Shown: one piece after another, positions 1 to 34,205 of the stretch | How positions within the stretch are numbered: position 1 is the stretch's first letter | Layout of the letters: each line of letters opens with the position of its first letter | Assembly: GCA_963726455.1 (NCBI GenBank) | Contig: CAVSCK010000003.1 | Coordinates: forward strand, 704,001-768,000 | Length of the DNA stretch: 64,000 nt | Direction: 5' to 3' | Source of the DNA: an uncultured bacterium | Lineage (GTDB): Bacteria; Zixibacteria; MSB-5A5; CAIYYT01 | Position numbers and translations under genes: made by a program | Notes under the pieces: generated by a model | What the model saw: the letters and a program-made list of their open reading frames with translations, nothing else | Told to the model about the DNA's origin: nothing | Databases searched by the model: none

Positions 1-216
1 CTTGGTGATTGCGGCTTTCTCGTCATCGGGTGATTCACGATACCACTGAACCGAAATTGACGACTTGAATTCCTCGTTCTTGCAGTCACCAAACTGGTCA
101 TAGAGATTTATCAGCCAGACCTGTAGCGCCTCCGTAATGCCATCGGACCGGTAGATCACATGCTGCGATCCCGGTGTATCGGGAAATGTACCGTATATCA
201 GGTGGTCGATCTTCAT
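1..216 (-). CDS. Partial CDS running off the window edge; N-terminus resembles GTPase-associated protein 1 N-terminal (GAP1-N) domains
   Basis: Manual translation from ATG at 216: MKIDHLIYGTFPDTPGSQHVIYRSDGITEALQVWLINLYDQFGDCKNEEFKSSISVQWYRESPDDEKAAITK, open to base 1, directly downstream of the GTPase gene. Family call is by motif resemblance only. Confidence 0.55.
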   Translation of the reverse strand, partial: MKIDHLIYGTFPDTPGSQHVIYRSDGITEALQVWLINLYDQFGDCKNEEFKSSISVQWYRESPDDEKAAITK

Positions 217-287
217 TGGTGCATGGAAGATTGATGAGCCGGTGGCGAGCTTATCATGTTCACACACGGAACGGTGTAGCAGACATA

Positions 288-2150
288 TTAGGGTAACTTG
301 GGTGGCTGTCCCGATTTGAGCTTGACGACAATCCCGTAATCCTTTCCGAAATCAAGGGTGTAGCCCTCGGTGAGCTTCGGATAGAAAGTTTCAATCGGAT
401 TCTCGACGTCCTGTGGCACCGGTTCACCCGTGCTGGAAGGACTGAGGTCGATGAACTTCGCGTGCACCGGGGCGTTGCCTATTCCGGTCACCTGCTTTTC
501 CACTTTGGGTGAATCACCTAGAAGATTCGCGAAGTCGACCGGTGGATTGTCACCGACCTGAATCACGACCTTGCTTTTCGGACGGAGGTTCTCGACTGCC
601 AGAGTGATCTGGAACGGTAGTATCTGTGCCGTCGCCATGCCGGCCTTGAGTTGCGCAGGAGACGCCTCTACTTGCTTCACGAATACAGCATCGAGACTAT
701 CCTTGGGATGATCCTGGAAAAGTTTGGTGATACCGGCTTCAAGCGCCGCCTGTTTATCGGTAGCCGGCAAAGTTGCCACCGAATCTTTCAGCCGCTTGAA
801 ATCATCAGCAGCGGCTTTGGTTTTTTCATCGTAATTCGGCTTCGGCGGTTCTTTCTTTTCCTGTTCGGTTTTCTCGACAGAAATGCGACTATCAATAAAC
901 TGCTGTCGTTCTTTTACAAACTGAATCAGCGGCGCGGCGCCGAAGAACTTGCTGACAGGCGTCTTGTCGTAGTAAGCGGTGTATTTCTCTTTGATGACTT
1001 TGGCCTGGTTCTCGGTGAATTGGCCGTTACTCGTCCGCAACTCGTCCACCAACTTGGTCTCCGCGCGGTCCAGCATGCTATAGAGCTTCAACTGATTGTA
1101 CAGGTTGACAATGCAGAACAGTGCCACCCACATCAAGCAGAGTGCAAACACCCACTTCACCAGGTATCGCCAGAATGCTTTGCGCTTATTGAACATGATG
1201 CGCCGGAATGCCCACTGGAGCGGATCGGCTACGCCGGACGAAGTCAAATCGCGCGGTGGCTCAATATCGCCAGTCGGCCGCTTGGCGATCGCGCCGGTCG
1301 AAGACACGAAGAAGACCTGGAAATCGAGCGTATAGGCACTCACCGAGTCAATGAAATTCGCCAAGGTGTGGCTGATACGCTCGGTCGTCTTGGCCCATAC
1401 CTCGCCAAAACGGCGGTTGTTGACTTTGACAAGTCCGCGGATGAAACTATCCTTGCGCCGGCCTTTGTATAGAGATGCACCACCCGGCACGAGATCGACG
1501 GGATTGATCTTTGAGAATCCGTCCAGGAAATCGGCCTTGGTAATCACGATACCCACCGGCACGCGCTTGGGCACGCAGTCATGCAGGTCGTGCAGGATGG
1601 TCTGAAATGCGGCGATCTGCTCCCGCAACAAGACATCAGTCTCTAGCACCGAAGCGTCAAGGAAGAACAAAGCCGCGCGCGCAAAGGGGAAGAAGCGCGC
1701 GAACTGTTTGCGTAACTCGCCCGGCTGGGCAATCGAGAGGGTTTCTCCCTTATAATCAACGGTATAGAACTTCACGCCTTTGCGAACCGACATGTCGAGG
1801 CCGAATCTGAGAATGCGCGTTTCGGACGTCATCGTCGGGAATTTGCGCTCCCCTTCGATCTCAACTTGCCGGCCTTCTTTGATGCGCAGCAATTTCCCGC
1901 GCATCATATTGTAGTTCTCGATCAGATTGGCGGCGGTATCATTGTCCAGAGGGGACAGTTTGAAATCTTCGTTGCCCTTTAACAATTCGTAGAGCACTGA
2001 GAAGTAAACCGTCTTGCCCGCGTTGGAATGCCCGAAGACGAGCACAACATTATCGTCATGATCAAATGGCGCGTCCGCTGCCTTGGGAGGCGCAGCCGAC
2101 TGCTTCTTGAAAATACCGAAGGCCTTCTTGACAAGTTCCAATGGGCTCAT
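288..2150 (-). CDS. Membrane-anchored TRAFAC-class GTPase-domain protein (N-terminal GTPase, one TM helix, C-terminal extracytoplasmic region)
   Basis: G1 GHSNAGKT, G2-like FPTMTS, G3 DYKGE, G4 TKAD; hydrophobic segment WVFALCLMWVALFCIVNLY; start overlaps the stop of the upstream gene. Confidence 0.8.
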   Translation of the reverse strand: MSPLELVKKAFGIFKKQSAAPPKAADAPFDHDDNVVLVFGHSNAGKTVYFSVLYELLKGNEDFKLSPLDNDTAANLIENYNMMRGKLLRIKEGRQVEIEGERKFPTMTSETRILRFGLDMSVRKGVKFYTVDYKGETLSIAQPGELRKQFARFFPFARAALFFLDASVLETDVLLREQIAAFQTILHDLHDCVPKRVPVGIVITKADFLDGFSKINPVDLVPGGASLYKGRRKDSFIRGLVKVNNRRFGEVWAKTTERISHTLANFIDSVSAYTLDFQVFFVSSTGAIAKRPTGDIEPPRDLTSSGVADPLQWAFRRIMFNKRKAFWRYLVKWVFALCLMWVALFCIVNLYNQLKLYSMLDRAETKLVDELRTSNGQFTENQAKVIKEKYTAYYDKTPVSKFFGAAPLIQFVKERQQFIDSRISVEKTEQEKKEPPKPNYDEKTKAAADDFKRLKDSVATLPATDKQAALEAGITKLFQDHPKDSLDAVFVKQVEASPAQLKAGMATAQILPFQITLAVENLRPKSKVVIQVGDNPPVDFANLLGDSPKVEKQVTGIGNAPVHAKFIDLSPSSTGEPVPQDVENPIETFYPKLTEGYTLDFGKDYGIVVKLKSGQPPKLP

Positions 2151-3061
2151 CGGTACGTCTCCACGACACTATTGGTCTGTTTCAATTCAAGTATTTTCGC
2201 GCGGTGTTGCTTTTCCCAGAATGGACGCACACTCACCGCGGCATAAAGAAATAAGAGAGTCAGAACCAGATAGACGATGTAAACCGGCCAGCGGTCGCGA
2301 AGCACATGAAACACAAAGCGGTAATTGACCACCGACGTAATTGCCGAACCGATCGAATCGAAGAATTTCTTAATCGCCAGGACAAACCGGCTCTTGCCAC
2401 GATAGATATCGTTAACATTGAGATACCACGCCGCAAATTCGCTTTGGTCAGACATTCGACGAAGTTCTTCCTCGGGTGCAAACGAGCGAATGTCAGCTTT
2501 GCGCCCTTGCAATGTGCTGGCGGCGATGTGCAGCATCTTTTTCTGCCATGAATCAGTGCGAACAATTCTCGTAGCGGAGGAAGACACCTGATCTGTTTCG
2601 CGGAAATTGGCCGCAATTTGCGCGTAGCGATTCAGGAGCATCGACTTTAGCGCGTTTTCCTGCTTGCCAAAACGGCGGATTTTCTCGCCAAAAATCAGCG
2701 GCGCTACGGTCATTTCGATGAATTGGCTGTCGTCGGACGTGCCGCGCAATTTCTTGGCGGCCAAAAATGCGTTCTGGCATTGTTGCGGGGGGCGTCTGAC
2801 ATACCAGAAATACAGTGGCAGCAGGTTGGCTACCACCAGCGACAACGGCTGTGCCTGCCGGGGAACGGTATTGACGCGAAGCTTCAAGTGCTCGTCAATT
2901 ATGTTTCCATTTTCACCGGTCATGTCGAGGCGGTCCAGTTCATTGAAGTATGCCTCACTCTCGCGCAGAAACACGTCGGCCGAAAAATCCGGCTGTTGCT
3001 TCTCATAGCGATTGAGCTGGATGAAGATCGAATTGATCAGCGCTTTCAGTTTTTCCGACAT
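2147..3061 (-). CDS. Hypothetical T6SS-associated protein with a C-terminal membrane anchor
   Basis: 304 aa, soluble helical N-terminus, single TM WPVYIVYLVLTLLFLYAAVSV near the C-terminus; 6 nt after tssK. Confidence 0.65.
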   Translation of the reverse strand: MSEKLKALINSIFIQLNRYEKQQPDFSADVFLRESEAYFNELDRLDMTGENGNIIDEHLKLRVNTVPRQAQPLSLVVANLLPLYFWYVRRPPQQCQNAFLAAKKLRGTSDDSQFIEMTVAPLIFGEKIRRFGKQENALKSMLLNRYAQIAANFRETDQVSSSATRIVRTDSWQKKMLHIAASTLQGRKADIRSFAPEEELRRMSDQSEFAAWYLNVNDIYRGKSRFVLAIKKFFDSIGSAITSVVNYRFVFHVLRDRWPVYIVYLVLTLLFLYAAVSVRPFWEKQHRAKILELKQTNSVVETYR

Positions 3062-3067
3062 ACGCTC

Positions 3068-4543
3068 TTATCGCGACCTGCTGAAGATCGCCACATGGTT
3101 CATCTTGACCGCTTCCAGCGCGGCGCGATCCACCTGTCCGTCGATAATTATATTCAGACGATCCAGCCGACTGCTCTTAAGCGGGAAATATTCGTTGGGC
3201 TGAATCAGCCAGAAGTCGGGATTTGTAACGTCGTCGACCGGCTTGCGTGCCACCGATGCGGCGGCGATGTCGTCAACTTCGTTGGCACCCAGGTATATGA
3301 TAACGTTGCTGGCATATTGAATCGGGAGCACCTTTTTGTCGAGCCGCACAATCACGTCCTCGGTACCGCGCGGATCGACACCGTCAATGATGATGTGGTG
3401 CCGATTGTTGCGGAATGAATACTTGACGGCGCCGTGATGTTGCAGAAGGAACCGGAAGCCGTCACGTTCGATTGAATCGGCAGCCCTTCCAGCGGCGCCA
3501 GAGGCATAATAGCTCAGAATTGCCGCGACAAACTTGAGCGCCTTCTCGGTGTCGTCAAAGAATTGCGTCATTTGATCGTAACCGTACTGGCGAGTCTGGT
3601 AGTCACGCAATTCAGGAAGGACCGTTCCGCCGGCAACAGTGCCCGAATCTACGGTCACTTGCGCATTGCGGACATATTCCCGCAACTCGGGATAAATCAG
3701 AAATCCCTGCTGAAATCCGCCCACGAGATCAGTAAAGGAATCTATCAAGGCGCGGCTGCCAACACCGGCAAAACCGTCGAACAAGCGATTGTAGCAGTAA
3801 TTCACAAAATGCAGCAGTGTCTCGGCCTGCAGGAAGACGCCGCGAATGGTTTCTTCCTCGGCTGCCGAGGGCCGGCTCTTCGTCTTGGCACGAACCTCGG
3901 CAATTGCCGCCAATCCGACCCGCTGAATCTCGTCGACCACTTTGCGGAGGCGCTCCATGCGCGAAACCACGGCCTTGCCACAGGTAGTATTCAGCACGGC
4001 AGGAACAAAGTCGGATCTGATTTCGAAGTCGTTTCCGGCGCGTACCAACTCCGTAATTTGAAATCCGCAGGATGAACTAAGACTCTCGGACGGGCCTACC
4101 GAAAGAGTCAGCCGCGGAACCTGGAACGGAAACCGACTCAACTGTTCGCCCGGAAGCGGGTCGCCAAACATTGTCCGATCTTGCGGCGCGGCATATAAGA
4201 AGATCGGCAGTCGCTCGCGAGATTCTTTGGCCAGATCGATCTTCAGTTCCACGGAGTGATACTTGGTGAAATCTTCATTGACATGTATCGGAGTTCCATT
4301 CGGCATCAGTGCGACGCACCGGGTTACTGATAAATAAAGGATGTTGCCGTCGCGGCGTAATTGCAGTTCCAGCGGTTCGTTGCGTATGGTCGCGGGTTTC
4401 GCAATACCATAGCCGCCGGCCAAGTTCGATGCCGCCCAGCGGTTGAGGTTGAGTGCGAAAGTCTCCTGCTGGTTCAGATGGACGCTGGATACCAGCATGC
4501 CATCAATCCAGTTAACTCCCCAAACATTGAATTCATCCATCAT
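3068..4543 (-). CDS. tssK: T6SS baseplate protein TssK (subtype iii-like)
   Basis: N-terminal VNWIDGMLVSSVHL motif, later SDFVPAVL motif; position after tssG; start taken at MMDEF (4543). Confidence 0.75.
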   Translation of the reverse strand: MMDEFNVWGVNWIDGMLVSSVHLNQQETFALNLNRWAASNLAGGYGIAKPATIRNEPLELQLRRDGNILYLSVTRCVALMPNGTPIHVNEDFTKYHSVELKIDLAKESRERLPIFLYAAPQDRTMFGDPLPGEQLSRFPFQVPRLTLSVGPSESLSSSCGFQITELVRAGNDFEIRSDFVPAVLNTTCGKAVVSRMERLRKVVDEIQRVGLAAIAEVRAKTKSRPSAAEEETIRGVFLQAETLLHFVNYCYNRLFDGFAGVGSRALIDSFTDLVGGFQQGFLIYPELREYVRNAQVTVDSGTVAGGTVLPELRDYQTRQYGYDQMTQFFDDTEKALKFVAAILSYYASGAAGRAADSIERDGFRFLLQHHGAVKYSFRNNRHHIIIDGVDPRGTEDVIVRLDKKVLPIQYASNVIIYLGANEVDDIAAASVARKPVDDVTNPDFWLIQPNEYFPLKSSRLDRLNIIIDGQVDRAALEAVKMNHVAIFSRSR

Positions 4544-4583
4544 CAGTTTCACCCATTTAGAACTTGAGGTGCAATATATCTTG

Positions 4584-5501
4584 TCATGCTGTTTCCCGCA
4601 AGAACGTCGAGAAACCCAGGTAAGCCGTACGAGATTCTTCCCCCGGCACAAACGGAGACACGCCGGGAACGAAGTTGTATCGCACCAGAGCGCGCTGATG
4701 CGCGGGCGCGAACAACACTGTCAGATTATCTACCAGATCCCGGCGCGTTCCGGTCGGCGCGAGATCGCGGATATCGGATATTTCGAGGCCATTTACATTT
4801 ATCATGAAAGTGGAGAAATTCTCCTCAAAGGTTGATCCCGGGACAAAATCACGTCCGAGCCGGGAGTTCGCCTTGCCGAGAGAATTTCGAAAAGGCTCGG
4901 GCACGAGATTCTCCTCCGGAATGTTTTCATCGACCGTAACCTGCTTCTTCAGGAATGCCGGCAGTACTCTCTCATAAAGCAGTTTCCTGCCACGGAAGAA
5001 CGGCGCGAAGAAACGTAGCAGGAGCAGGAATCGCCGGTCTTCCTTCGCTATGGACGGCAGATCGCCGCCGAAACGGTCCCAGTATAATAGCTCTGCATCG
5101 CTGTCGTCGATACAGAATAACAGTCTGAGTTTGAGAATGTGGAAGGCAATCCAGAAACGGTACGTGATAGTATCGAAGGCGCTCCAGAACTCAAGGTACT
5201 TGTTTTCCATGACTCCCGGGTGGTGGTCCGACTCATCCATCTGTTCCACGAAAAAGGTGTCAGGGAAATGGTTCTTGAAAGACGGCAGATATGCCGCCAC
5301 CACGCGCTCCTCACGCCTGGACGTACGCGCCGTAAGGGTGCGGATCGCCTCAATGTCGGTTACGAAACCGCCCTGAGCTTCATGACTGATAAATGCGAAT
5401 TCCGCCGCATCAATTCCCAGCGAAGCCAGCAGAAGTGAAAACTCGGTGAGACGGATATGCTCGTTGATGCGGTAATCTGTGGCGACAAAACCGGTTTTCA
5501 T
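4584..5501 (-). CDS. tssG: T6SS baseplate protein TssG
   Basis: LGKANSRLGRDFVPG and FMINVNGL resemble the TssG C-terminal motif; translationally coupled to tssF. Confidence 0.7.
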   Translation of the reverse strand: MKTGFVATDYRINEHIRLTEFSLLLASLGIDAAEFAFISHEAQGGFVTDIEAIRTLTARTSRREERVVAAYLPSFKNHFPDTFFVEQMDESDHHPGVMENKYLEFWSAFDTITYRFWIAFHILKLRLLFCIDDSDAELLYWDRFGGDLPSIAKEDRRFLLLLRFFAPFFRGRKLLYERVLPAFLKKQVTVDENIPEENLVPEPFRNSLGKANSRLGRDFVPGSTFEENFSTFMINVNGLEISDIRDLAPTGTRRDLVDNLTVLFAPAHQRALVRYNFVPGVSPFVPGEESRTAYLGFSTFLRETA

Positions 5502-7252
5502 GCTTCCACCAATCGCGCTTCCAGATGCAGGTTAAGCGGCGTGTAGCTATCGAGATATTCTGAAAGGCGTTGAACCAGGAATCGCCGTTCATCATCGGAA
5601 ATCTTCACGTCAGTACGAAGTCGCACATCAACTATCACCGACGGCAACAACCCGCCGGCGGTGCGGCTGACTCCGCGCGCGGCTTTGGCTTCGACAATTC
5701 GACTGTCAAAGTTGCGCGTCAGATATTCGATTTCTCCCTCTGACAATGCCACGCCGTGGTTGCGCAGGAAGAACCCCGTCAGGCGCTTCATCTCTTCGCG
5801 CGAACGAACGTCCGAGCCACCCGACGAAGTCACCAGATTGCGGATAGTTTGTATCTGCGGATGCGGCTTTGCCAGTTCAAAATCGATTTCGGCGCCGATC
5901 CCGTTGCCACTGTTGCCCTCAGTCACGGAGTATTCTACCACCACGAAATCGGGCGACGCTTTGCCGGTGGGAACAAAATCAAATTTGATTTTCAGCCCGT
6001 CTTCTTCTTCCACAATCATATATTTGCGAGGATTTCCAAAGGCCGTGAGGTCGAGATGGTTCGAATACTCGTCGTCATTGGAATCCCAGACGCGGTCGAT
6101 CGAAAACAGCCGGTCCGGCAACGAACCCGCTTCTTCATCTTCATACTCGAAGAGGTTAACTTCCAGCACCGGCTGGCCCATCGTGTACTTATTGCGATGA
6201 TTTTTGCGGCGGTTGATCGCCAGAATCGTGTTGCTGTCGAAGAAACGGAACTTACGCAAATCGCCTACACGTTCGTCTCTGGCCAGATCGATTCGCAGCC
6301 ACAGACGCGGTGCCTTAAGGCCGCTGAAGTCGATGTGCGAAAACTTGCTTTGCAACTGAGGCGGCAAGAGCATCTTCTCTGCCTTCGCATATTGTTCCTG
6401 CGGAACATGCACAAAACCCTTGGCGGGCGCCAAATAGTGCTTGAAATGCCAGAGCAGACGGCCCGCAGTCAAGAAATCTGAACTGTACAGCCGACTCTGA
6501 AAACTGCTTTCGAGCTCAAATTCGCGGATATCGAGATGCTTGAATATCTCCAGTCGGTCATGGAAGTTTCCCGGCTTGAACGGTGGGGTACGTTGCCCCG
6601 TCGTCTCGACATGCCAATCTACCCAGTTGAGCATCTGTCCGGCCGGCAAGTCCGGTCCGGTATACAGTCTGATGGCGTCGATATCCTCAAGAGGCAAGCC
6701 GGTGGTTATTCCTATATATATGGTACCGCCCAATGGTGGTGGGGCGCTTCGCTGCATCGTGCGGTAGTGCGATGACTGCAGCGTTTCTTCCCACTTGTCC
6801 GCCTCCGGCGGGAGCGCCTTGAGCACGCGGAAATAGTCGCCCGATACGAAAAATACCAGATCGGCGTTGATATCGAAAATGTCCTGGTCATGAAGAGGAT
6901 AGAACGAATAATCGCGCTGCTGCGCGCCTGGCAAGCGACAGATGAATTCCATTTCGGTGTCGACCTGTGCGCGCTTGTCGGAGCAGGAACAAGATAACAT
7001 GGTGAATGCCGGTATGGGCCGACGCAGTCCCGTGACAAAGAAATTCGTGATCATCGTGTCGATGACGGTCTCGGCGGCCTGCTTGAGTTTGTCTTCAGTC
7101 TGAATCGCGTGGAAGGCGAAGCCCTTGAGCATGAGCAGAAGCGCCGGATCCAACTGTTTCTCGCCTGATGGAACCTGATAGCCCCAGAAACGCAGCCGGT
7201 CTACAAGTTCATTATATACGCGCTCTTCGCGATCTGTCCACTTGGCGTTCAA
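5498..7252 (-). CDS. tssF: T6SS baseplate protein TssF
   Basis: 584 aa; N-terminal LDPALLLMLKGFA and RRPIPAFTM; C-terminal YSVTEGNSGNGI and SSGGSD baseplate-wedge motifs; between tssE and tssG. Confidence 0.8.
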   Translation of the reverse strand: MNAKWTDREERVYNELVDRLRFWGYQVPSGEKQLDPALLLMLKGFAFHAIQTEDKLKQAAETVIDTMITNFFVTGLRRPIPAFTMLSCSCSDKRAQVDTEMEFICRLPGAQQRDYSFYPLHDQDIFDINADLVFFVSGDYFRVLKALPPEADKWEETLQSSHYRTMQRSAPPPLGGTIYIGITTGLPLEDIDAIRLYTGPDLPAGQMLNWVDWHVETTGQRTPPFKPGNFHDRLEIFKHLDIREFELESSFQSRLYSSDFLTAGRLLWHFKHYLAPAKGFVHVPQEQYAKAEKMLLPPQLQSKFSHIDFSGLKAPRLWLRIDLARDERVGDLRKFRFFDSNTILAINRRKNHRNKYTMGQPVLEVNLFEYEDEEAGSLPDRLFSIDRVWDSNDDEYSNHLDLTAFGNPRKYMIVEEEDGLKIKFDFVPTGKASPDFVVVEYSVTEGNSGNGIGAEIDFELAKPHPQIQTIRNLVTSSGGSDVRSREEMKRLTGFFLRNHGVALSEGEIEYLTRNFDSRIVEAKAARGVSRTAGGLLPSVIVDVRLRTDVKISDDERRFLVQRLSEYLDSYTPLNLHLEARLVEA

Positions 7253-7255
7253 ATG

Positions 7256-7603
7256 CTAGATCTCCCAGGAAAGGTCAAAGCGTTGCCCGTCACGAGCGGT
7301 GCCATATACGCGACAAGTAAAGGTGGCAGTGATGGTCTCTTCAACCTTGTCGGATATTGTCACGTTTACGGAGATGCCCATGTACCGCCGGAATTGTTCG
7401 ATGACGTGATTGCGAACTTCAGTCTTAAGGTCGGTGGAATATTCGGGAGTAAAGTATGCCGAACGACAGCCCAACTCGGGATCAGGGCGATAGCTGCCCA
7501 GCTCGGTTTCAATGAGAAACCGGGCAAATTCCTCCGATTGGCTGCTGCGCAGGAAGCGGCAGTCTTTTATTTCTAATGGTACCCGAAGCGCTTCGTCGGC
7601 CAT
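7256..7603 (-). CDS. tssE: T6SS gp25-like baseplate protein TssE
   Basis: 115 aa; LIETELGSYRPDPELGC resembles the gp25 T..GE...P.FG motif. Confidence 0.7.
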   Translation of the reverse strand: MADEALRVPLEIKDCRFLRSSQSEEFARFLIETELGSYRPDPELGCRSAYFTPEYSTDLKTEVRNHVIEQFRRYMGISVNVTISDKVEETITATFTCRVYGTARDGQRFDLSWEI

Positions 7604-7606
7604 AGT

Positions 7607-9466
7607 TTAGTTTAGTGAAATCGGCGATCCCTTGACGGTAACCGGTCCTTTCCCGCTAATATCCATCATTGCCGCACTCTGTTGCAGGTTCCCCTGCGCA
7701 TCCAGCGTCATCATGCCGCTGCTTTTGACTTCGGCGCCGCCGCCGCCTGCTTTGATCTTGCAGGAAGTCTTGGCGTCAATCGACACGTTCTGCGCCTCCA
7801 ACTTGAAATCACCGTCGGCCTTAAGAGTAATATTACCTTTGACGGTGAGGTTGTAATCTTTATCGGCAGTGATGTTGATTGTATTCTCTTTCGAATCTAT
7901 GATCATCGTGTTCTTGCCGGTGCGATCTATAATCTTGATCTTACCCGAGCCATCTTTATCATCGATGGCGATCTGGTGCCCCGAACGTGTATAGATAACC
8001 TTGAGATCATTCTTGCTGGCTTCGCCGTCGCTGCCCTTCGGATCGATTGCACTTTGCGGCGGCTTGTCGGTGCCATTCCACATCGCCCCCAGCACGATCG
8101 GCATGTTGGGATCGCCCATTTCAAAGGCGACCAAAACCTCGTCCGCAATTTCGGGCATGAAGTAGATACCTCTATTATTTCCGGCATACCCACTGATCGT
8201 GCGCAGCCAGGGACTGATCAGGTCGCTGCCATTTTCACCCTTGGCAGGGAATTTTACTTTGACGCGTCCGCGTAAGTCCGGATCAACATTATCGGTGACG
8301 ATCGCGGTTATCGGATCGGTACGCACTTCATGCTTGACCTGCGGCCAGGGCGGACAGGCGCTTTCCAGCGGGCTTGCGGTCACAAAATTATGGTAATCGG
8401 TGCCGGTCTCGATATGGTGCATGATTGAGGTTATGATAAAGACGCCCGTGTAGGTGTCGCCCATGCCTTCAAGTTGAATCGCGTCCCCAACCTTCAGTGA
8501 CGGGACGTTAGTTTGCAGGTGACATTCAGTCAACGAGCCAAGTTGCTCGGCCTGCATCGCTTCCGTGACTTGCTTTTCTTGCGCCGCCTTGGAATCGCCG
8601 CGCGTGGGAAGTATCGCTGACGACACCTTGCCCATATTCTGTCCCGAGGCGTTGTAGGCCTTCTTGGCTATCCCCGAGAATTGCGTTTGGGGAGCCGGCT
8701 GGTTCTTTTCGATTACGCTCTTGGCGGCCTCGTCCCAGGTGTAGTTCTTGTACTTGAAGCCGGTCACATTCATTTTGAGATTCGCCGAGCCAATGTGTTT
8801 CTGCCAGGTCAGAGTATGAGTGTTCCGGCTTTTCTTCTCCTCGACGACCAGCTTCTTGCCGTCATAGAACACCCAGCCCGGATAAGTCTTCCATCCAGAT
8901 GTCAGATATTCCCAGTCGGTCAAGCCCCATTTGGTCCAGAAATCTCTGGTGGCGGCGCCGCTAACTGAGATTGACCCGGTATCGATATTGTATTGACCCA
9001 TAATCGTGCGGACGATGTCCTCAAATGACATATTCTCAAAGAAGACGTATCCCCGGCTCTGATCGGTGAGAATCGTCGGGCTCATGGCTTCGATTACGAT
9101 TCTGTTCATTTCACCGCCGGTGTTGGAAAACCCGACGTTCGTAATCAATCCAAAAAATTCAAGTGCCTCTCCGGCGGCGACATACTCGTCGGCGGGAGTG
9201 ATCTTAAGACTCACGCTTTTGCCGATCGTATCCTGATACTTGGTGGTCGACACAAACTCCCGGCCCTGGTTGGCGGCCTCGATGTCGAGCGAAAATTCCA
9301 GCACCAACCGATGATGAGCAAAGACGCTTTGCTCAAGCCGGAACGACTGCAACGGCCAGTTGACGGCGACGTTGGCTATCATAACCGTGGCTGACACCAC
9401 GCAGCGTGAGTGCACGTCGGCTTCAGTCATTTGCGGTCGGTTACTATTGGGATCAAGTTCCGGCAT
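7607..9466 (-). CDS. vgrG: T6SS spike protein VgrG/TssI
   Basis: gp27-like N-terminus, gp5 OB-fold VTDNVDPDLRGRVKV...PEIADEVLVAFEMGDPNMPIVLG, short beta-helix tail; no effector extension. Confidence 0.92.
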   Translation of the reverse strand: MPELDPNSNRPQMTEADVHSRCVVSATVMIANVAVNWPLQSFRLEQSVFAHHRLVLEFSLDIEAANQGREFVSTTKYQDTIGKSVSLKITPADEYVAAGEALEFFGLITNVGFSNTGGEMNRIVIEAMSPTILTDQSRGYVFFENMSFEDIVRTIMGQYNIDTGSISVSGAATRDFWTKWGLTDWEYLTSGWKTYPGWVFYDGKKLVVEEKKSRNTHTLTWQKHIGSANLKMNVTGFKYKNYTWDEAAKSVIEKNQPAPQTQFSGIAKKAYNASGQNMGKVSSAILPTRGDSKAAQEKQVTEAMQAEQLGSLTECHLQTNVPSLKVGDAIQLEGMGDTYTGVFIITSIMHHIETGTDYHNFVTASPLESACPPWPQVKHEVRTDPITAIVTDNVDPDLRGRVKVKFPAKGENGSDLISPWLRTISGYAGNNRGIYFMPEIADEVLVAFEMGDPNMPIVLGAMWNGTDKPPQSAIDPKGSDGEASKNDLKVIYTRSGHQIAIDDKDGSGKIKIIDRTGKNTMIIDSKENTINITADKDYNLTVKGNITLKADGDFKLEAQNVSIDAKTSCKIKAGGGGAEVKSSGMMTLDAQGNLQQSAAMMDISGKGPVTVKGSPISLN

Positions 9467-9496
9467 TTGTTCCTCTGGTTTTGTCCGTGTGGCGGC

Positions 9497-9534
9497 TAAA
9501 AGAGCGGGAAGGGAGCGTGTACTCGCCTTCCCGC
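9497..9534 (-). terminator. Intrinsic terminator-like hairpin after hcp
   Basis: On the minus strand GCGGGAAGGCGAG-TACACG-CTCCCTTCCCGC followed by TCTTTT. Confidence 0.65.
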
Positions 9535-9558
9535 CACTATCTCAGTGCCCCGATGGGC

Positions 9559-9973
9559 TCATTTGCCTTTCCAGTCCTTCTTGTACTCGACACCGTTGAC
9601 ATCCACCAACTCGGCGGAAATCTCGAAGTACTCGTACATCTGCTCGTTCGGCATGGCCGACGTGGACGGAACGTGCTCTTCGTAGTGCGTGACAAAGCCG
9701 TTCTGCCACTTGAGAACCTTCAGTTCCTTCTTCAGGTTGGGATCCTTGAAGGTGATCTCACCGGCCTTGCGATTGACCTGCGAAGAGTCAAATGCCCAGC
9801 TGCGCGATGCCGACGTTGTCATCTGACTCGCGGCTGATCTTGATCTTCAGACCACACGGGATCGAACTGGGCTTGCCGTCCGTGGTGTCATGAGGCGTGA
9901 AGATTTCATAACTGACCGAGCGCACTTTGTCGAACTTCTCGCCGTCAATCTTGAGTTCTACTTCTTGTGCCAT
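9559..9973 (-). CDS. tssD: T6SS tube protein TssD/Hcp (subtype iii); one apparent +1 insertion near 9799
   Basis: ORFs 9788-9973 and 9559-9822 join into 137 aa on removing one base (GIAQ-WAFDS). Motifs SVSYE..DGKPSS..G.KI and GEITF..LKW..GFVTHYEE are typical of Bacteroidota-type TssD. Confidence 0.85.
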
Positions 9974-10082
9974 TGGTTGGCTTCCTCCTACTATCGTTTA
10001 CAGTCTCTGTTTCTCTGTTTCTGGGCTTCTTCCTGCCGCTTTCACCCATAACTGTCGAGATACCCCTCGGAGCGGTTCAGAA

Positions 10083-11497
10083 TTATTTTACCGCCGCCTG
10101 ACCCGACTCGTCGACCAGCGCTTCCAGCTTGACGACGTACTGCTTGATCGGCGTCTTGGTGTTGAGCGCCACTTCCAGCAACATCTGCTGGTTTTCGATC
10201 ATTTCGTTGGTCGCAATCACGTTGCAGGTAAAACCGTTGATCACTTTGTTCCGCTGCAGCAGACTCAGGAACTTGTTCAGATCGCCGTCGATCGACTTCT
10301 TCAGCTTGTCGTCGAAAGCCCTTGTAGACCTGCTGGTTGAGATAATTGCGCATCGTCTTGTAGATGTAATCGTAGGTGCGCTTGATCGTATAGTTGCGGA
10401 ACTTGGGATCCTTGCTCAGCGTGTCGGCGCCCATCGCCACGACATCACCCACATCACCCTGCCAGTTGAGCACGCAGTTGACACCCTTCTCGTTGATCTT
10501 GGTATTCTTGGCTTCCGACAATTTGATTCGAGTTCGCGAAACTCCGCCCAGCTTGCCGTTGGCTTTACCGGCGGACGGCGCCTGGATACCGATCTCGTTA
10601 TCATTTTTGTATATCAGGCCGGCTACCATCGGTGACGGCGGCAGCCACATCGCTTCTTTGTCGAAACGGCTTTCCGGCTTCTCGGCCTTGACGTAGTTGC
10701 CGAATACCGAGATGTACGCCTTGTACTCGTCGTTGCCACGCAGATCATCGTAAGCCGGATCGTCCAATTCGTCCGACCAGTTCTTCGTAAGTGTCGAAAT
10801 GTTTGAAGTCGGTCAGAATGTGCAGCTTGTTCGGCAGTCCCATATCGCGGGCGACCGTATCGATGTCTTTCACTGACCCCAGATAACCGGGAATAGCAGC
10901 AGAGGGCGTAGCTGTTCTTGATGTCGTAAAGCCCGTAGATATCGTGAATCTGCCGGTTGATATACTCGAACTTTTCACGATCGTTTGGATCGGTCAGATC
11001 GCTGATACCGACATTGGCGAAATAGGCATAGATTTCCGAATCCGGGCGCGCCGCAGCGTTCTGGAAGAACAGATCGATGCCGCGGATAGGCGGTTTCCAG
11101 CGGACGAATCGTTTCGTGAATGTTCTTCATGTTCTCGACGAGATTCTTGTCCGCCGCTTCTGATCATGTTGTCCAGTTTGTCCTTGAATTCGTCAGAGGT
11201 GACGTCATTCGGCCCTAACTGTTCAGCCCAAACTTGCAGACGCTGTTTCAGTTGGTTACGGCGATCTTTGAATTCGTCGGAAGTGAGAAACTTATTAAAT
11301 GATTCGTTCTTGGGATCGAGGAACTTTACACCCTCGATGTGTAAACCATCCTGGCTCTTGAAATGAGACAGGTGGTCTTTGACAAGCTCGTAGCCGACAA
11401 AACCGACTCCGAGGATGTCTTTTAGGTCAGCTTTTTCCTTGACCTTGGCTTCGGCTTGTGCCGATTCCTTTTGCAGATCTTTTTCTTCGTCAGCCAT
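10083..11497 (-). CDS. tssC: T6SS sheath large subunit TssC (DUF5458-like); five apparent +1 insertions
   Basis: Removing single bases near 11161, 11085, 10901, 10774 and 10320 gives a 469-aa ORF containing LETAYRGIDLFFQN, IPGYLGS, ILTDF and LPPSPMVAGLIY. Confidence 0.85.
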
Positions 11498-11514
11498 GAC
11501 TTCCTCGCAGCGGT

Positions 11515-11970
11515 TTACAGTTGATCGATATATGATTTAATGACCTTCATGAATTCCGCCTTCTTCTCCGGCGATGACAGGTCTTTTTTCAGCTTGGAAT
11601 TCGGTTTTTCCAGCAGGTTTTTCAGATTGCGCAGGATTTCCACTTCGTTGTACTTCGACTGAAGGTACTCATTCTTCTGAATGATCTCCATCGAACCGAA
11701 ATCCTTCATCGCGTTGAATTCCAGTTCGACCGTTTCTTCCGAGCCATCCTGCTTCTGGACGGTAACTTCCTGCGACGGACGGAAGGTCGTGAAGACTTCC
11801 TTGAGATTCTTGCAGCGGGTCAATTCCGGTTCGCTCTCTTCGCGCGAATTCAATTTGGTCAAGTAGACCATTTTGTTCGACGGAAGCAGATCGACCGGAA
11901 TAGAATCGCTCTTTTCCTTGTACTCCGTAGTGCCGATATGGGGAGCGGCAATACGATACTGGTCTGCCAT
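11515..11970 (-). CDS. tssB: T6SS sheath small subunit TssB (subtype iii)
   Basis: NKMVYLTKL..EPE..LKEVFTTFRPSQEV..ELEFNAMKDF matches Bacteroidota-type TssB; immediately before tssC. Confidence 0.85.
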   Translation of the reverse strand: MADQYRIAAPHIGTTEYKEKSDSIPVDLLPSNKMVYLTKLNSREESEPELTRCKNLKEVFTTFRPSQEVTVQKQDGSEETVELEFNAMKDFGSMEIIQKNEYLQSKYNEVEILRNLKNLLEKPNSKLKKDLSSPEKKAEFMKVIKSYIDQL

Positions 11971-11986
11971 ATAACCTCCTTAGAAT

Positions 11987-13069
11987 CTATACTTTCACAA
12001 TTTCAAATTCGTCTTTGTTCATCCGCACTTCGACCTGCGAACCTTCCGGAAAGCGGCCGTCAATGATCGCCATCGAGAGCGGATTGAGAATCTCCTTTTC
12101 AATAAGCCGCTGCAATGGGCGCGCACCCATTTCGAAATTATACCCCCGGTCAGCCAGCGCCTTCTTGGCGTCAGCCGCACAGGTAATGGTCATCTTCTGA
12201 TCTTTAAGAATTCCATTGATCACTTTCAACTGGATATCGACGATAGCGCCGATGCCGACTTCTGACAACGGCCGGAAGATAATCCATTCCAGACGGTTCA
12301 GAAATTCGGGACGGAACTTGGTCTTCAGCACGTTCATCATTTCTTCCCGCTCGACCGGCTTGTTTTCGCGATAACAGTCCAGAATATAGTGGGCGCCGAA
12401 GTTCGAGGTCAGAATTATCATCGCGTTGGTGAAATCGATCGTGTTCCCCTGCCCGTCGGTCAGTCGGCCGTCGTCCATGATCTGCAGCATGATGTTGAAA
12501 ACATCGGGGTCCGCCTTTTCGACTTCGTCGAAAAGTACTACCGAAAAAGGATTGCGCCGCACTTTTTCGGTCAACAAACCACCCTGATCGTAGCCGACAT
12601 ATCCCGGCGGCGCGCCGATCAGCTTGGCGACGGAGTGCTTCTCCATATATTCCGACATATCAAACCGGACGATATTCGATTCATCGTTAAAAAGATATTC
12701 CGCCAATGTCTTCGCCAATTCGGTCTTGCCGGTACCGGTCGGTCCCAGGAATAGGAATGAGCCAATCGGGCGGTTATGCCGCTTGATTCCCGAGCGGGAA
12801 CGCCGTACCGCTTCCGAAATTGTCTTGATCGCGGAATCCTGGTCGACCACGCGTTTCTGCAGGTAGTCTTCCATATGCAGCAGCTTGGTCTTTTCATCTT
12901 CCATCATTCGCGACACCGGAATTTTGGTCCAGCGGGAAATGACAAAGGCCACGTCTTCAGGAGACAGTGTGGGATCGGTCTTGAAGACGAACTGTTCCAG
13001 TCGCTCCATCTTCTGAATGTTTTCCTTAAACCTGCTTATTTGCGTTTGTTCTTTTTCCATATTTCCCAC
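11987..13069 (-). CDS. tssH: ClpV/ClpB-family ATPase, second AAA+ module (D2) only
   Basis: RPIGSFLFLGPTGTGKTELAK, DMSEY, GAPPGYVGY, FDEVEKA, FRPEFLNR, GARPL. Confidence 0.85.
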   Translation of the reverse strand: MGNMEKEQTQISRFKENIQKMERLEQFVFKTDPTLSPEDVAFVISRWTKIPVSRMMEDEKTKLLHMEDYLQKRVVDQDSAIKTISEAVRRSRSGIKRHNRPIGSFLFLGPTGTGKTELAKTLAEYLFNDESNIVRFDMSEYMEKHSVAKLIGAPPGYVGYDQGGLLTEKVRRNPFSVVLFDEVEKADPDVFNIMLQIMDDGRLTDGQGNTIDFTNAMIILTSNFGAHYILDCYRENKPVEREEMMNVLKTKFRPEFLNRLEWIIFRPLSEVGIGAIVDIQLKVINGILKDQKMTITCAADAKKALADRGYNFEMGARPLQRLIEKEILNPLSMAIIDGRFPEGSQVEVRMNKDEFEIVKV

Positions 13070-13098
13070 TCAGTTTGATCGTGCTATCAAAGCAACGC

Positions 13099-14517
13099 TT
13101 ACTTGACCCGATCTTTCCAGGGTGCAAAGAGCTCATCGAATTCTTCATTAAACGCCTGTAGCTTCGACTTGATTTCCGGAGCGATCTTGGCGTCACTGTC
13201 GGTCTTAATACTGTCGCCTAGTTCCTGATTTAGTTCAGCGGCCATCTTCTTCAGCCCTTCCAGACTGTTTTTTGTGCGCGTACAGTTGAGTCGGAACGAC
13301 GCACAGGCCTCATCCAAAAGATCAATGGCCTTGTCGGGAAGGAAGCGGTCGCCGATGTATCGTTGCGACAGCCGAATTGACTCGTCCACGACCGAATCGG
13401 GAATGGCCAGACTGTGATGCTTGCTATACACGTTTCGGACGCCGGCCAGGATTTCCTGGGCTTCGTTGAATTTCGGCTCTTCCACCATCACACGTTGGAA
13501 ACGCCGATCAAGCGCCTTATCCTTTTCGATATATTTGCGATATTCTTCGTTCGTAGTCGCACCGATAACCTTAAACGCACCGCGTGCCAGTGCCGGTTTC
13601 AGCAGGTTCGCTGCATCCATACCACCGGCAGGATTGCCCGCCCCTACCAGCGTATGCACCTCATCGATGAACAATACGAGGTTACCTTTGCCTTTGGACA
13701 ATCTGGATACGAGGTTGTTGAATCTTTCCTCGAATTCGCCTTTATATTTGGCTCCAGCCACCAATTGTCCCAAATCGAGATTTAGAATGACTGAATCGTG
13801 AAGTTCGGGGGTGGTCTGCTTGTTGACGATCTGTAGCGCCAGTCCTTCCACCAGAGCCGACTTGCCAACTCCCGGCGGACCAACCAGAATCGGGTTGTTT
13901 TTCCGGCGGCGAATCAGCACCCGGCTGATATTGTAAATATCTTCCTGCCGCCCAAAAAAGTTGTCCAGCTCGCCTTTGCGGGCCTTCTCCGTAAGGTCTA
14001 CGCAGTACTTTACACCTTCGATGCCGACAGCGGTTTCACCGTCCTCGGTCGTGACCTGTGTTCCAGCGATTGACTGCACGACCTTCATGTCAGCCATCGC
14101 GTCAATTATCTTGCCTTCATCGAAATCGAGTCGGCGTAGGATTTGTTCCGATAGTGGCGAATCCTTTGAGACCAGCACCATCAGCACATGCTCTGGACGA
14201 ACTTCGGAATCGGAGTACTTCTCGGCTTTGTTGCCGGACGCAACCAACAGAGACTGCAGCGCCGGAGCTGCGGCGGGTTTGACTTCGTCGGTGGACAGCT
14301 TGCGCATTTTCGACAACTCATCCGCCAGCAAAGCTTCAAAATACTCGGGCTTCTTCCCAAGTTGCTTGAAAATGGCAGCGAGTTCGCCCCCTTCGTCGCG
14401 CAGCAACACGAGGAAGAAGTGGTTGGGAGTGATCTCGGCATGGAAGTAACTCTTCGCAAGTTCCTGAGCCCGCCGAATGCAATTTGTCAAGGTCGCAGAA
14501 TACGATCCTAAATCCAT
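13099..14517 (-). CDS. tssH: ClpV/ClpB-family ATPase, Clp-N repeats plus first AAA+ module (D1)
   Basis: Clp-N helices, [39 protein letters not shown]; ends in the coiled-coil linker region. Confidence 0.85.
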
Positions 14518-14570
14518 ATGCTTCCTACCGTCTTTTCTGAACTATGTGCATTTAATGCGCTTAGCGATCT

Positions 14571-14599
14571 AACTTACCGCTCGCCATGTCAAGTGTCAA
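14571..14599 (-). promoter_or_regulatory. Sigma70-type promoter of the T6SS operon
   Basis: TTGACA-N17-TAAGTT on the minus strand about 55 nt upstream of the first ATG. Confidence 0.55.
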
Positions 14600-14847
14600 G
14601 GTTTTAGTTAGTTCAATTTCCCTAGTTAGCTAAACCGGCACAAAAACTTACCCAGTCAATATCCGCCACAAGTAAGGTATTTTCTGAAGGCACTGAGTCG
14701 CGGAGCGCCAATGGCTTAACGTATTCGCAGTGCTCCTTGTTTGCCGGCGTGCCTGTTTCCCCCAATCTTCGAATTTTGCTTTTCCAAACTGTCGCCTGGT
14801 GGTAAACTGCCGTCATCGGTGGCGTCAGCCCGGAAAGGTCAGTAATT

Positions 14848-15909
14848 GTGCAGTATTCTCCAGCCCAGCGATCTTGCATAGCCATTCTACCGCAAGTTTC
14901 GCGCTCGTTCGCCCTCAATATACGGGTTCTCGGGGGCGACCTGTACTGGTCCGTGCTGACGGCCTATTTATTCTGCCGCATAGTCGATACGGTCGAGGAT
15001 TCCGAGCAGCTATCCAGCGACACCCGGGAAAAATTGCTGACTGAGTACATCGGATTGTTCAAAAGCCGGGACATCTCAATCAGTCAGGTCGGTAAGTGGG
15101 CTACCACATTTGGCTCAAACGACGAGAGCAACCCTGAGCACGTGCTGATTGCGAAGTGCCCTTCAGTTTTCGAAGTGTTTCTCCAACTGCCTGATTCATC
15201 CAGACAGGCGATATCAGAATGCGTCATCGAGATGGCCACCGGCATGCGAAAAGCTGTCGCCGGCGGGCCCGCTGACGGAAAACTACATGTTTTGGAGACC
15301 ATGGCGGAACTGGAGGAATACTGCTACTACGTCGCCGGAACCGTCGGCAAAATGCTGACCCGGCTGTTTGTGTCGCATTCGCCGTCGATCAAACCCTCTA
15401 TTGTCAGGAAACTTGAACAATTGCAGGTGTCGTTTGCGCTGGGATTGCAGATGACCAATATCATCAAGGATTGTCATGACGATTTCGAGCGCGGTTGGTG
15501 TTATGTACCGGTCGAAATCGCGCAGAAACACGACGCCTCGATTGTAGAATTCCTTGAATTGCAAAATCGCGAAAGGTCGCTGAAGACTCTTGACGAGCTT
15601 ATCCGGGAGGCGGCGCGGCATCTCGATGACGCGATATCCTACACGCTGCTGATACCGCGCCGGGAAGTCCGAATGCGGCTTTTCAATCTCTGGTCGTTAT
15701 TCTTCGCCATCAAGACATTAAACATGTCGTTTCACAACGCTGACTTGTTAACCGGTGAGCGGAAAGTCAAAATATCGAGGTTTGAAGTCTACCGGACGTT
15801 GGTACAGACTGGCTTGAGAGTCTTCAGCAACTCGCTGCTGCGGTCGCTATACAAAAAACTCCGCGCCAAAATACCGGACAAAGCCGCAGATTTGATGTCA
15901 CAGATATAG
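14848..15909 (+). CDS. Squalene/phytoene synthase family protein (squalene synthase-like)
   Basis: VSRSFA, DTVED, YCYYVAGTVG, LQMTNIIKD, VKISR motifs. Confidence 0.9.
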   Translation: MQYSPAQRSCIAILPQVSRSFALNIRVLGGDLYWSVLTAYLFCRIVDTVEDSEQLSSDTREKLLTEYIGLFKSRDISISQVGKWATTFGSNDESNPEHVLIAKCPSVFEVFLQLPDSSRQAISECVIEMATGMRKAVAGGPADGKLHVLETMAELEEYCYYVAGTVGKMLTRLFVSHSPSIKPSIVRKLEQLQVSFALGLQMTNIIKDCHDDFERGWCYVPVEIAQKHDASIVEFLELQNRERSLKTLDELIREAARHLDDAISYTLLIPRREVRMRLFNLWSLFFAIKTLNMSFHNADLLTGERKVKISRFEVYRTLVQTGLRVFSNSLLRSLYKKLRAKIPDKAADLMSQI

Positions 15910-15938
15910 TTTCGGGCAGGCAAAACTCGAAAGCTTAG

Positions 15939-16652: not shown

Positions 16653-16941
16653 TGCGTGTCCTTTTCACTTTCTGAAATGCATCATGTAGACGCGAACTTT
16701 GCGGCAGATTTCCAGGCGATCGCTTTATCGAGGCCTGATCGCCGCGCCCAGATCCTTTATTCAAATCCATTATACAAAGCTAGAATACCAAGTTCAAGAA
16801 ATGTTTTGCGTCCTTGCTGACCACTTCTTAGTACGTAACTTGCCTGCCGAACGTGCAATTGAATATGAATCCCCGATAAGGTCTTTTGTTGATTTTCTCA
16901 ACCTCCTGCGCTACACTTACGTAGTGTCAGGAGTGCGAATC

Positions 16942-18336: not shown

Positions 18337-18365
18337 CTTCGCAGATAACAAAGGAGAGGACTCTA

Positions 18366-25024: not shown

Positions 25025-25373
25025 AAGCCTACCTCCTTGCAGACACAAAGTATGAGTTTTTGAACTGGCGAAATGACCTCGCCAGTAGACTTATTTGATT
25101 TTTCTGACCGCTATAGGAATGCTCGGGGGTTCCTGCCCGAATCCATCTACAATGTCGCGTTCCACGTCCGATTTGTCAAGTGGAAAAGTGTACCTCCGGC
25201 ACCACATCTTGAGCACATGAGTTTGAGTTGTGGACGCCAAAGTCTCCGATTGCACGACGAATACTTGACGGCTCGGACTCGTCGCGGTCGTTCGATATGA
25301 TGTCGAATATCCCCGGCGATAGCTGAGGCATTCACAGATAACTTATTGCTACACAGTATATTTCAAATAATAC

Positions 25374-32196: not shown

Positions 32197-32264
32197 CAGA
32201 AGTTAAAAGGCAGAATAGCTACATACATGCAATCAGTAACTAATAAACACAAGGAGCGTTGTTA

Positions 32265-32565: not shown

Positions 32566-34205
<1,640 letters not shown>

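Follow-up and report, generated by a model that had tools for sequence, protein, structure and literature searches.

The window analysed here, a stretch of 64,000 nucleotides (G000:C3:704001-768000) from an uncultured bacterium of the Zixibacteria, carries at its left end a type VI secretion system (T6SS) operon, in which the genes of a contractile tail are followed by the genes for a helical membrane protein of 304 amino acids (aa), p304, and for a membrane-anchored GTPase, whose possible role in the cell envelope is the subject of this report. The source genome, G000, is 100%-complete, comprises 3.64 Mb in 5 contigs, and was searched in its entirety and in six frames for the membrane-complex families discussed below. 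The row tssH (as two open reading frames, ORFs)-tssB-tssC-tssD-vgrG-tssE-tssF-tssG-tssK, which an original prediction made from the letters alone had placed in window 1-14517, is confirmed on the minus strand, and constitutes the single T6SS locus of the genome, which contains one VgrG and one Hcp (tblastn, entire genome).

The tail operon

Read in the direction of transcription, the operon and its upstream region contain:

14586-14599, minus strand: doubled TTGACA, TTGACAcTTGACA, a candidate -35 box upstream of clpV, by direct reading
13099-14517, minus strand: tssH/clpV part 1 (472 aa), with N-domain, first AAA+ module and lid
11987-13069, minus strand: tssH/clpV part 2 (360 aa), with second AAA+ module and D2-small domain
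11515-11970, minus strand: tssB, small sheath subunit (151 aa), by Pfam T6SS_VipA
10083-11497, minus strand: tssC, large sheath subunit, in five frames, the pieces of which match PF17541
9559-9973, minus strand: tssD/hcp, tube protein, in two pieces that match PF17642 TssD (2.4e-12 and 0.0057)
7607-9466, minus strand: vgrG/tssI, spike (619 aa), by family models
7256-7603, minus strand: tssE, gp25-like baseplate wedge (115 aa), by its family profile against gp25 structures (4e-9)
5498-7252, minus strand: tssF-like baseplate protein (584 aa), by position and weak matches
4584-5501, minus strand: tssG (305 aa), by T6SS_TssG at 37.7 bits (cut-off 24.6) and TIGR03347 at 8.7e-10
3068-4651, minus strand: tssK (ORF of 527 aa), by TIGR03353 at 1.1e-8 over residues 46-245

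The sheath-recycling ATPase ClpV was found with all its domains, distributed over two ORFs: Clp_N (2.3e-13), AAA (5.1e-13) and AAA_lid_9 (1.9e-27) in the first, and AAA_2 (1.9e-67) together with ClpB_D2-small (3e-22) in the second. TssB scored 26.9 bits on T6SS_VipA (cut-off 24), and matched TIGR03358 at 4.6e-5, under the cut-off of that model; the VgrG, a fused gp27-gp5 protein, matched Phage_base_V (1.3e-22), Phage_GPD (8.4e-13), and NF033848 VgrG_rel (6.6e-50). TssE alone gave no Pfam match, and its counterpart in L018, a locus from another family, reached 56.4 bits on GPW_gp25. The matches of TssF were weak (T6SS_TssF at 0.022 and TIGR02243 at 0.0014, with its profile against baseplate-J at 0.042 and against the TssF structure 6giy at 0.07), as were those of the TssK profile to solved structures; the TssK start common to the relatives in an alignment is residue 38, at about window 4540. 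Thus listed, the set of tail, baseplate and recycling genes is complete and under selection.

That the cluster might encode an extracellular or cytoplasmic contractile injection system, and not a T6SS, is scarcely credible. The C-terminus of TssC does match Phage_sheath_1C, and TssE does match the Afp9, Pvc9 and gp25 structures, which similarities are expected because of shared ancestry; but ClpV, a two-part TssB/TssC sheath, TssK, TssG, and the fused VgrG are all present, and the cluster contains no tape-measure, tail-terminator or tail-fibre gene.

The two tssH ORFs proved to be a genuine conserved split, and not damage, two ORFs being present in 6/7 of the relatives that we read (L014-L020, of which L020 is the same-genus reference locus). 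In the window, clpV stops at 13099-13101 and starts anew 29-38 nt downstream in a different frame; in L014-L017, L019 and L020 the two ORFs are of ~473 and ~357 aa, and in L018 a single ORF of 852 aa is found. The break point separates the first AAA+ module and its lid from the second AAA+ module. As to earlier descriptions of a split ClpV, nothing was found in the literature, at which question no search was aimed.

The frames of tssC and hcp required closer consideration. Compared with L020, tssC contains five extra single bases (near 11160, 11086, 10895, 10776 and 10314) and hcp one (near 9802), none of the six inside a homopolymer. To judge from the sequence, these frameshifts are almost certainly assembly errors, because groEL, of which the genome has a single copy, shows breaks of the same kind: that gene (window 32566-34205, plus strand; groES at 32247-32555) falls into three frames through insertions at ~32956 and ~33848, while in two same-genus genomes it forms a single frame of 546-547 aa, and two further extra bases occur in the DNA flanking it (32248 and 32569). 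When placed in register, TssC is identical to that of L020 in 442/470 residues, with 141 synonymous versus 28 non-synonymous codon differences and no stop, and Hcp in 136/138 residues, with 32 synonymous versus 2 non-synonymous; the two are thereby the best-conserved proteins of the operon and, as these codon counts indicate, are under purifying selection. At all five of the sites that they cover, contigs ~90% alike from two other metagenomes lack the extra base. Moreover, 4/6 of the extra bases fall at the third position of a codon, next to the base that is its synonymous alternative (TAT+C, TGC+T, TTT+C, GCG+C), which pattern looks like two alleles written successively.

Were the frameshifts real, the cluster would be a decaying, non-functional remnant in this strain; and indeed the six frame-breaking insertions are crowded within 1.85 kb, versus ~13 kb of intact neighbouring genes, and no sequencing run of the same strain was found (seven listed runs, each with a 0.05 share of words, and no RNA run among them). 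We nevertheless consider such decay very unlikely: the sole groEL has two insertions of the same kind, the in-register TssC and Hcp are the proteins with the strongest conservation and a strong synonymous excess, all six changes are +1 and each stands next to a base that differs by a single substitution, and four other data sets contain relatives without the extra bases. As explanations for tssC, programmed frameshifting and four-base decoding were likewise dropped, the six sites having no common motif and groEL the same defect. The case calls for caution in annotation, since in a long-contig assembly with single-base insertions the most conserved genes may be misread as pseudogenes.

The sigma70-like promoter that had been claimed for the operon did not hold: the TTGACA doublet is not accompanied by a good -10 box, and a consensus scan lists no promoter upstream of clpV. 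A CTTGACA upstream of clpV is present in the same-genus locus L020 too.

The genes beyond tssK

The features that follow tssK are listed below, where L003 denotes DNA of the left flank, in which L003:2748-3284 corresponds to G000:C3:702748-703284:

2147-3061, minus strand: p304 (304 aa), a cytoplasmic domain made entirely of helices, then one membrane helix at the C-terminus
288-2150, minus strand: membrane-anchored GTPase (620 aa), with G motifs and one membrane helix
2010-2033, minus strand: G1 of the GTPase, GHSNAGKT, by motif reading
1743-1757, minus strand: G3 of the GTPase, DYKGE, by motif reading
1530-1541, minus strand: G4 of the GTPase, TKAD, by motif reading
1107-1163, minus strand: membrane helix of the GTPase, residues 330-348, by hydrophobicity
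1-267, minus strand: 5' part of p289 (289 aa), its initial 89 codons; the entire ORF is L003:3398-4267, ending at G000:C3:703398
L003:2748-3284, plus strand: p178 (178 aa), secreted, convergent to the operon and 716 bases left of the window

The operon had been predicted to continue past the left edge, but of its genes only the last crosses that edge, by 602 bases; in the 40 kb fetched to the left of the window there is nothing TssN-like. The order leftward after the GTPase gene is p289, a strong terminal hairpin (14-bp stem, L003 3350-3380, between the p289 and p178 genes), the convergent p178 gene, and the malic enzyme gene maeB.

The hydrophobic helix of p304 spans residues 260-278 (window 2228-2284). 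This protein gave no Pfam or NCBIfam family, either alone or across 43 relatives, and no usable Atlas match; its AlphaFold model (predicted local-distance difference test, pLDDT, 85.3) had a best PDB match at E 0.3 with a template-modelling (TM) score of 0.22. We take p304 as a candidate inner-membrane dock. A TssL-like identity was rejected on the fold, there being no TssL entry among the PDB matches.

The AlphaFold model of the GTPase (pLDDT 79.3) contains, after the membrane helix, a helical bundle and a beta-sandwich, which parts would presumably be periplasmic. Among solved structures, the G domain resembles those of SR-beta, G-alpha, MglA and Arl (1.8e-6 to 1e-4), the nearest sequence family being DO-GTPase2 (PF19993), to which 42/42 family members are matched, the best at 2.1e-7; the window GTPase itself stands at 19 bits, under the cut-off of 27. 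IcmF-related_N, the TssM N-domain, is matched weakly by 23/42 members (best 0.0019), and the GTPase gene gives the sole signal of that model in G000.

The small protein p178 has a signal-peptide-like N-terminus, and p304 and the GTPase have one membrane helix each, the soluble core proteins none. As to p289, GAP1-N2 was matched weakly in 11/11 family members, the best at 9.4e-5 and all under cut-off, and GAP1, according to PMC7159879, is the partner protein of the DO-GTPases and is typically encoded just downstream of them. The profiles of p304, the GTPase, p178/p177b and p289 against solved structures yielded nothing significant; and a complex prediction with GTPase 1-335, p304 1-258 and TssK 290-527 returned scores of 0.00, 0.65 and 0.00, which constitute evidence neither way.

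To follow this arrangement among relatives, we surveyed the 285 species genomes of the GTDB phylum (198 of good quality, in 20 families), in which the GTPase, at E <= 1e-10, was present in 145/285 genomes, in 107/198 of those of good quality, and in 7/20 families: all members of f1 and f12 and nearly all of f15 carry it, and none in 13 families. TssF was found in 20/20 other genomes of the window's GTDB family, and in 2/20 of the genomes from other families that were sampled first. When the GTPase alignment was used as query against species genomes, 80 loci were retrieved. In 80/80, all the T6SS genes detected lie on one strand in the same order, which reads (ClpV)-TssB-TssC-Hcp-VgrG-TssE-TssF-TssG-TssK-p304-GTPase. 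Within those 80 loci p304 was counted in 79, TssK in 75, TssG in 70, TssF in 69, TssE in 61, VgrG in 60, Hcp in 55, TssC in 54 and TssB in 52, all the absences falling at contig or locus ends. In 79/80 loci the p304 gene is flanked immediately by tssK and the GTPase gene, the 80th being cut by the contig end. Accordingly, of the three unrelated genes, a GTPase among them, that had been noted after tssK, the GTPase is indeed present, but two of the three, far from being unrelated, are the genes most tightly linked to the system.

What comes after the GTPase differs between lineages. In the window's family, p289 follows and then the small secreted gene in convergent orientation, the latter being present in 12/16 of the loci that reach that far. 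In the lineages outside that family, whose loci we call type B, the gene for a secreted protein of 175 aa stands directly after the GTPase gene on the same strand. That protein of the other lineages is homologous to p178 (hhalign 98%, E 2.6e-13), and the conserved trio is therefore p304, the GTPase and p178. In contrast, p289 was found only in the window's family, is absent from the type-B loci, and is a family-specific addition; its candidacy as a conserved component was rejected on an alignment, in which the small gene of the other families is a different protein.

The strongest argument for regarding the p304-GTPase pair as part of the machine, and not as neighbours by mere descent, comes from L108, a metagenome contig retrieved via a TssC cluster that contains a protein labelled Candidatus Eisenbacteria and belongs to the TssC group nearest to the Zixibacteria type, because there the adjacency to tssK survives a rearrangement. 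In L108 the T6SS genes form two divergent rows (206-9271, minus, and 9552-18732, plus), and here too tssK adjoins a gene for a protein of 310 aa and one for a GTPase of 794 aa; the former protein is homologous to p304 (hhalign 99.1%, E 1.2e-18), and the GTPase reaches 55.1 bits on DO-GTPase2, over the cut-off of 27. That contig also contains a fused ClpV, a 626-aa kinase-like/FGE-sulfatase protein encoded between clpV and tssK, and a 566-aa ORF in which a gp25 domain is fused behind PDZ domains.

The records of the 80 loci are labelled Zixiibacteriota (27), Ignavibacteria (25, all third-party automated assemblies), Krumholzibacteriota (4), Calditrichota (1) and Deferrimicrobiota (1), with 22 bearing no phylum. 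Loci of the window's family are labelled both "candidate division Zixibacteria" and "uncultured Ignavibacteria"; since both labels occur within one GTDB family, one set of labels must be wrong. The predicted Zixibacteria-like origin of the genome fits the record titles of its relatives, and fits a phylum of only 285 species genomes that, unlike the Bacteroidota, is without TssN; nor is the contig a Bacteroidota chimera, the cluster being conserved in 20/20 of the family members searched.

A candidate envelope module

The sheath and tube are, as had been proposed, of the T6SS-iii sequence type, the intact TssC and Hcp of the same genus scoring 171.6 bits on PF17541 and 72.6 bits on PF17642, respectively. 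At E <= 0.001 a TssC profile search returned 2317 cluster representatives, of which 165 reached <= 1e-30; the identity of the TssC is 25-28% to the nearest Bacteroidota-type sequences and 25% to the nearest one with a Bacteroidota name. Trees were built with FastTree (120 rows) and with a quick IQ-TREE run (43 rows, LG+C20), both unrooted and with most rows lacking an organism name. In the latter, the TssC of Zixibacteria and Krumholzibacteriota form one clade, with a Shimodaira-Hasegawa-like approximate likelihood-ratio support (SH-aLRT) of 99, and the picture from FastTree is the same; three Bacteroidota-named sequences (Chitinophagaceae, Hoylesella, Spirosoma) and one from KSB1 belong to a separate clade of 21 rows, with support of 97. 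Nesting of this TssC inside Bacteroidota clades, which had been set beforehand as a refutation of a distinct variant, was thus seen in neither tree. Because the trees are unrooted and most rows unnamed, we make no claim of a sister or an ancestral position for the Zixibacteria-type TssC.

No known membrane anchor was recognised. TssN (PF17555), TssO (PF17561) and TssR (PF17643) had no match in G000, the blank for TssR being a weak one because control genomes gave no TssR match either; nor did IcmF-related (PF06761), DotU (PF09850), SciN (PF12790) or ImpA_N (PF06812), for all four of which an E. coli control passed the cut-off. Over the whole phylum, TssN exceeded its cut-off in 0/285 genomes. 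The predicted lack of recognisable TssN/O or TssJ/L/M genes is therefore borne out for the entire genome, and the proposal of a distinct T6SS variant, in a lineage from which no characterised T6SS is known, is supported.

In PMC10781749 (2024) and in the review PMC13584744 (August 2026), the T6SS are divided into four classes, with the T6SS-iii restricted to the Bacteroidota. A full-text search, which took in few subscription journals, found no T6SS described in Zixibacteria, Krumholzibacteriota, Calditrichota, Eisenbacteria or KSB1, and a search of the same scope found no link between DO-GTPases and the T6SS. As the automatic annotation of the NCBI names some related sheath proteins TssC in records of KSB1 and Eisenbacteria, T6SS-like sheath genes of those lineages are already visible in the databases; the part that appears to be undescribed is the envelope module and its linkage to tssK.

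We regard it as fairly probable that the cluster encodes a working T6SS variant in which p304, the GTPase and p178 replace TssJLM or TssNOPQR as the envelope module. PMC10781749 names as requirements for the membrane complex of a T6SS a hub in the cytoplasm, membrane helices, a cage in the periplasm, and an anchor in the outer membrane. In the arrangement that we propose, the TssK baseplate would dock at the inner membrane onto the cytoplasmic domains of p304 and of the GTPase; the membrane helices, the periplasmic part of the GTPase and p178 would span the periplasm as a conduit or anchor; and the binding and hydrolysis of GTP would act as a switch licensing either assembly or firing, which switch would, in the window's family, be regulated by the GAP1-N2-like p289. 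The ClpV would recycle the sheath as two polypeptides, and the cargo would include a PAAR and DUF4123-Rhs cassette that is encoded on another contig. We infer this envelope role from linkage and topology, and claim no contact among p304, the GTPase, p178 and TssK, or of these with the outer membrane.

Several points weigh against that proposal. No outer-membrane lipoprotein or channel was identified in the operon, and no lipobox is visible in p178, whose gene, moreover, lies on the opposite strand in G000 and is not beside the operon in 4/16 of the family loci. For p304, no relative whose function is known could be detected; the likeness between the G domain and the TssM N-domain is weak, at 18 bits in the window GTPase (cut-off 25); and TssF is identified mainly by its position. 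In addition, the anchor searches covered TssN/O/R/J/L/M/A, and divergent TssP or TssQ homologues may be encoded elsewhere.

The impossibility of pointing to an outer-membrane element is the main reason for which we keep at about a quarter of our confidence the alternative that the T6SS is real while p304, the GTPase and p289 are regulators, the true trans-envelope complex being encoded elsewhere. They could then constitute a switch for assembly or for positioning, with a role comparable to that of the TagQRST/PpkA/Fha pathway or of the MglA-type polarity GTPases; and the G domain is in fact of the switch type, with its MglA, Arl, G-alpha and SR-beta folds, the DO-GTPases having been proposed as switches in PMC7159879. 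One candidate for such a trans-envelope complex is an operon of five genes (L043:12746-19341, minus) encoding a Ser/Thr kinase with a PEGA domain, a CsgG-like protein, a TPR protein, and two unknowns, which operon stands, convergent, beside at least 20/25 of the long type-B loci. A kinase gene also occurs immediately upstream of clpV in the sister genus g2 (L014:1892-2926) and another in L108, and the window itself encodes, 41 kb from the operon (55348-56412, plus), a Ser/Thr protein kinase (Pkinase, 86.6 bits) whose orthologous stretch, 55390-56409, is 52% identical to the kinase of g2. In G000, however, the kinase-CsgG-TPR operon is unlinked to the T6SS and lies on another contig (C4:70773-76696), with a partial second copy at C3:234149-236540, and therefore behaves as a general operon. 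Furthermore, p304 and the GTPase are membrane proteins encoded right after tssK in every locus; in the T6SS-iii, as PMC10781749 describes it, the anchor TssN binds TssK and its gene is beside tssK; and an association without exception in 80/80 loci would not be expected for a pure regulator. The regulatory alternative consequently remains, in our judgement, unlikely.

Very improbable, in turn, is the notion that the GTPase and p289 form a DO-GTPase/GAP1 anti-phage conflict system merely adjoining the T6SS. The DO-GTPase2 matches in 42/42 members and those to GAP1-N2 in 11/11 would agree with such a system, as would the position of GAP1, typically downstream of the GTPase (PMC7159879); but p289 occurs in one family only and each of its GAP1-N2 matches is under the Pfam cut-off, the GTPase is tied to tssK in the 80 loci and in L108, and there is neither a second GTPase nor any of the variable effector genes that define those systems.

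Returning to the envelope module, we advance, more tentatively and as somewhat short of probable, the broader and joint proposition of a fifth architectural class of T6SS in phyla of the Fibrobacteres-Chlorobi-Bacteroidetes (FCB) group other than the Bacteroidota, with records labelled Zixibacteria, Krumholzibacteriota, Calditrichota and Eisenbacteria-like as its carriers. In that class a GTP switch would be built into the trans-envelope anchor, the GTPase with p304 and p178 would form a minimal membrane complex gating the docking of the baseplate or its firing, and ClpV would act as a two-chain unfoldase. Both TssJLM, in which TssM has a related P-loop domain, and TssNQOPR could descend from this trio or have converged with it.

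With regard to the significance of these observations, in another phylum, half of the species sampled carry iii-type sheath and tube genes, versus the view of that type as restricted to the Bacteroidota; and the module, if its role is the one proposed, would represent a third, unrelated solution to membrane anchoring. As such it bears on the origin of the membrane complex, for which PMC10781749 leaves open whether an ancestral complex was later replaced or independent acquisitions occurred. It likewise offers a simple test case, with three proteins, of whether nucleotide hydrolysis gates T6SS assembly. To judge from the cluster, antagonism by contact may well be widespread among the uncultured bacteria of sediments and soils.

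As for the cargo, the original prediction had allowed for PAAR and effector genes outside the window, which do exist, but on another contig and not left of the operon: G000:C5:30092-34545 (minus) encodes a PAAR protein of 123 aa, then a DUF4123-Rhs fusion of 1206 aa, and then a 133-aa ORF. DUF4123 is a T6SS adaptor domain, and the cassette probably comprises a T6SS effector together with genes for its adaptor and for immunity. A further PAAR protein, of 358 aa, is encoded at G000:C3:481073-482149.

Elsewhere in the window, large secreted proteins are encoded at 21857-25048, 27299-29944, 30340-32031 and 53763-55259, three of which have dockerin type I and one of which is a subtilase with PKD domains and a C-terminal sorting domain of the type IX secretion system (Por_Secre_tail, 27.3 bits). 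At 47993-49396 (minus) there is a multi-haem cytochrome (Multi-haem_cyto, 85.2 bits; MtrC/MtrF-like domain, 41.4 bits).

Relation to known systems

With the DO-GTPase/GAP1 conflict systems, as Kaur et al. (2020, PMC7159879) present them, the cluster shares a G domain that is closest to DO-GTPase2, Atlas neighbours that include DO-GTPase families, and, in the window's family, a GAP1-N2-like gene after the GTPase. Unlike those systems, it contains a single GTPase, which has a C-terminal membrane helix and a periplasmic domain, is fixed in a T6SS operon, and is accompanied by no variable effector genes, while the GAP1-like gene is absent in most lineages and in p289 only the GAP1-N2 region is matched.

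The topology of the trio recalls the TssL/TssM/TssJ complex of the T6SS-i of the Pseudomonadota, with demonstrable homology limited to the weak P-loop similarity. In the T6SS-i, TssL is a tail-anchored cytoplasmic protein, TssJ is a small exported partner, and TssM sits in the inner membrane and has, besides a periplasmic domain, a P-loop NTPase domain on the cytoplasmic side. By contrast, the models for DotU, IcmF-related and SciN find nothing in G000, and the p304 model has no TssL match; the GTPase has one membrane helix, and not the three of TssM, as well as a much shorter periplasmic part; p178 is without a visible lipobox; and the sheath and tube are of another sequence type.

The T6SS-iii of the Bacteroidota, which Russell is said to have treated in 2014, shares more with the cluster: TssC and Hcp fall into PF17541 and PF17642, neither TssA nor TssJLM occurs in G000, the gene of a membrane protein adjoins tssK, and the host lineage is labelled as belonging to the FCB group. 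That system combines TssB-K with a TssNQOPR membrane complex (Bongiovanni 2024, PMC10781749). Unlike in it, there is no TssN, TssO or TssR match in G000 and no TssN over the cut-off in the phylum, the anchor candidates are instead a tail-anchored helical protein, a GTPase and a small secreted protein, the Zixibacteria TssC lies outside the Bacteroidota-named clade, and ClpV is split. Judged by its sheath and tube sequences, therefore, the nearest known system to the cluster is the T6SS-iii, from which it departs in its membrane complex and in its taxonomic range.

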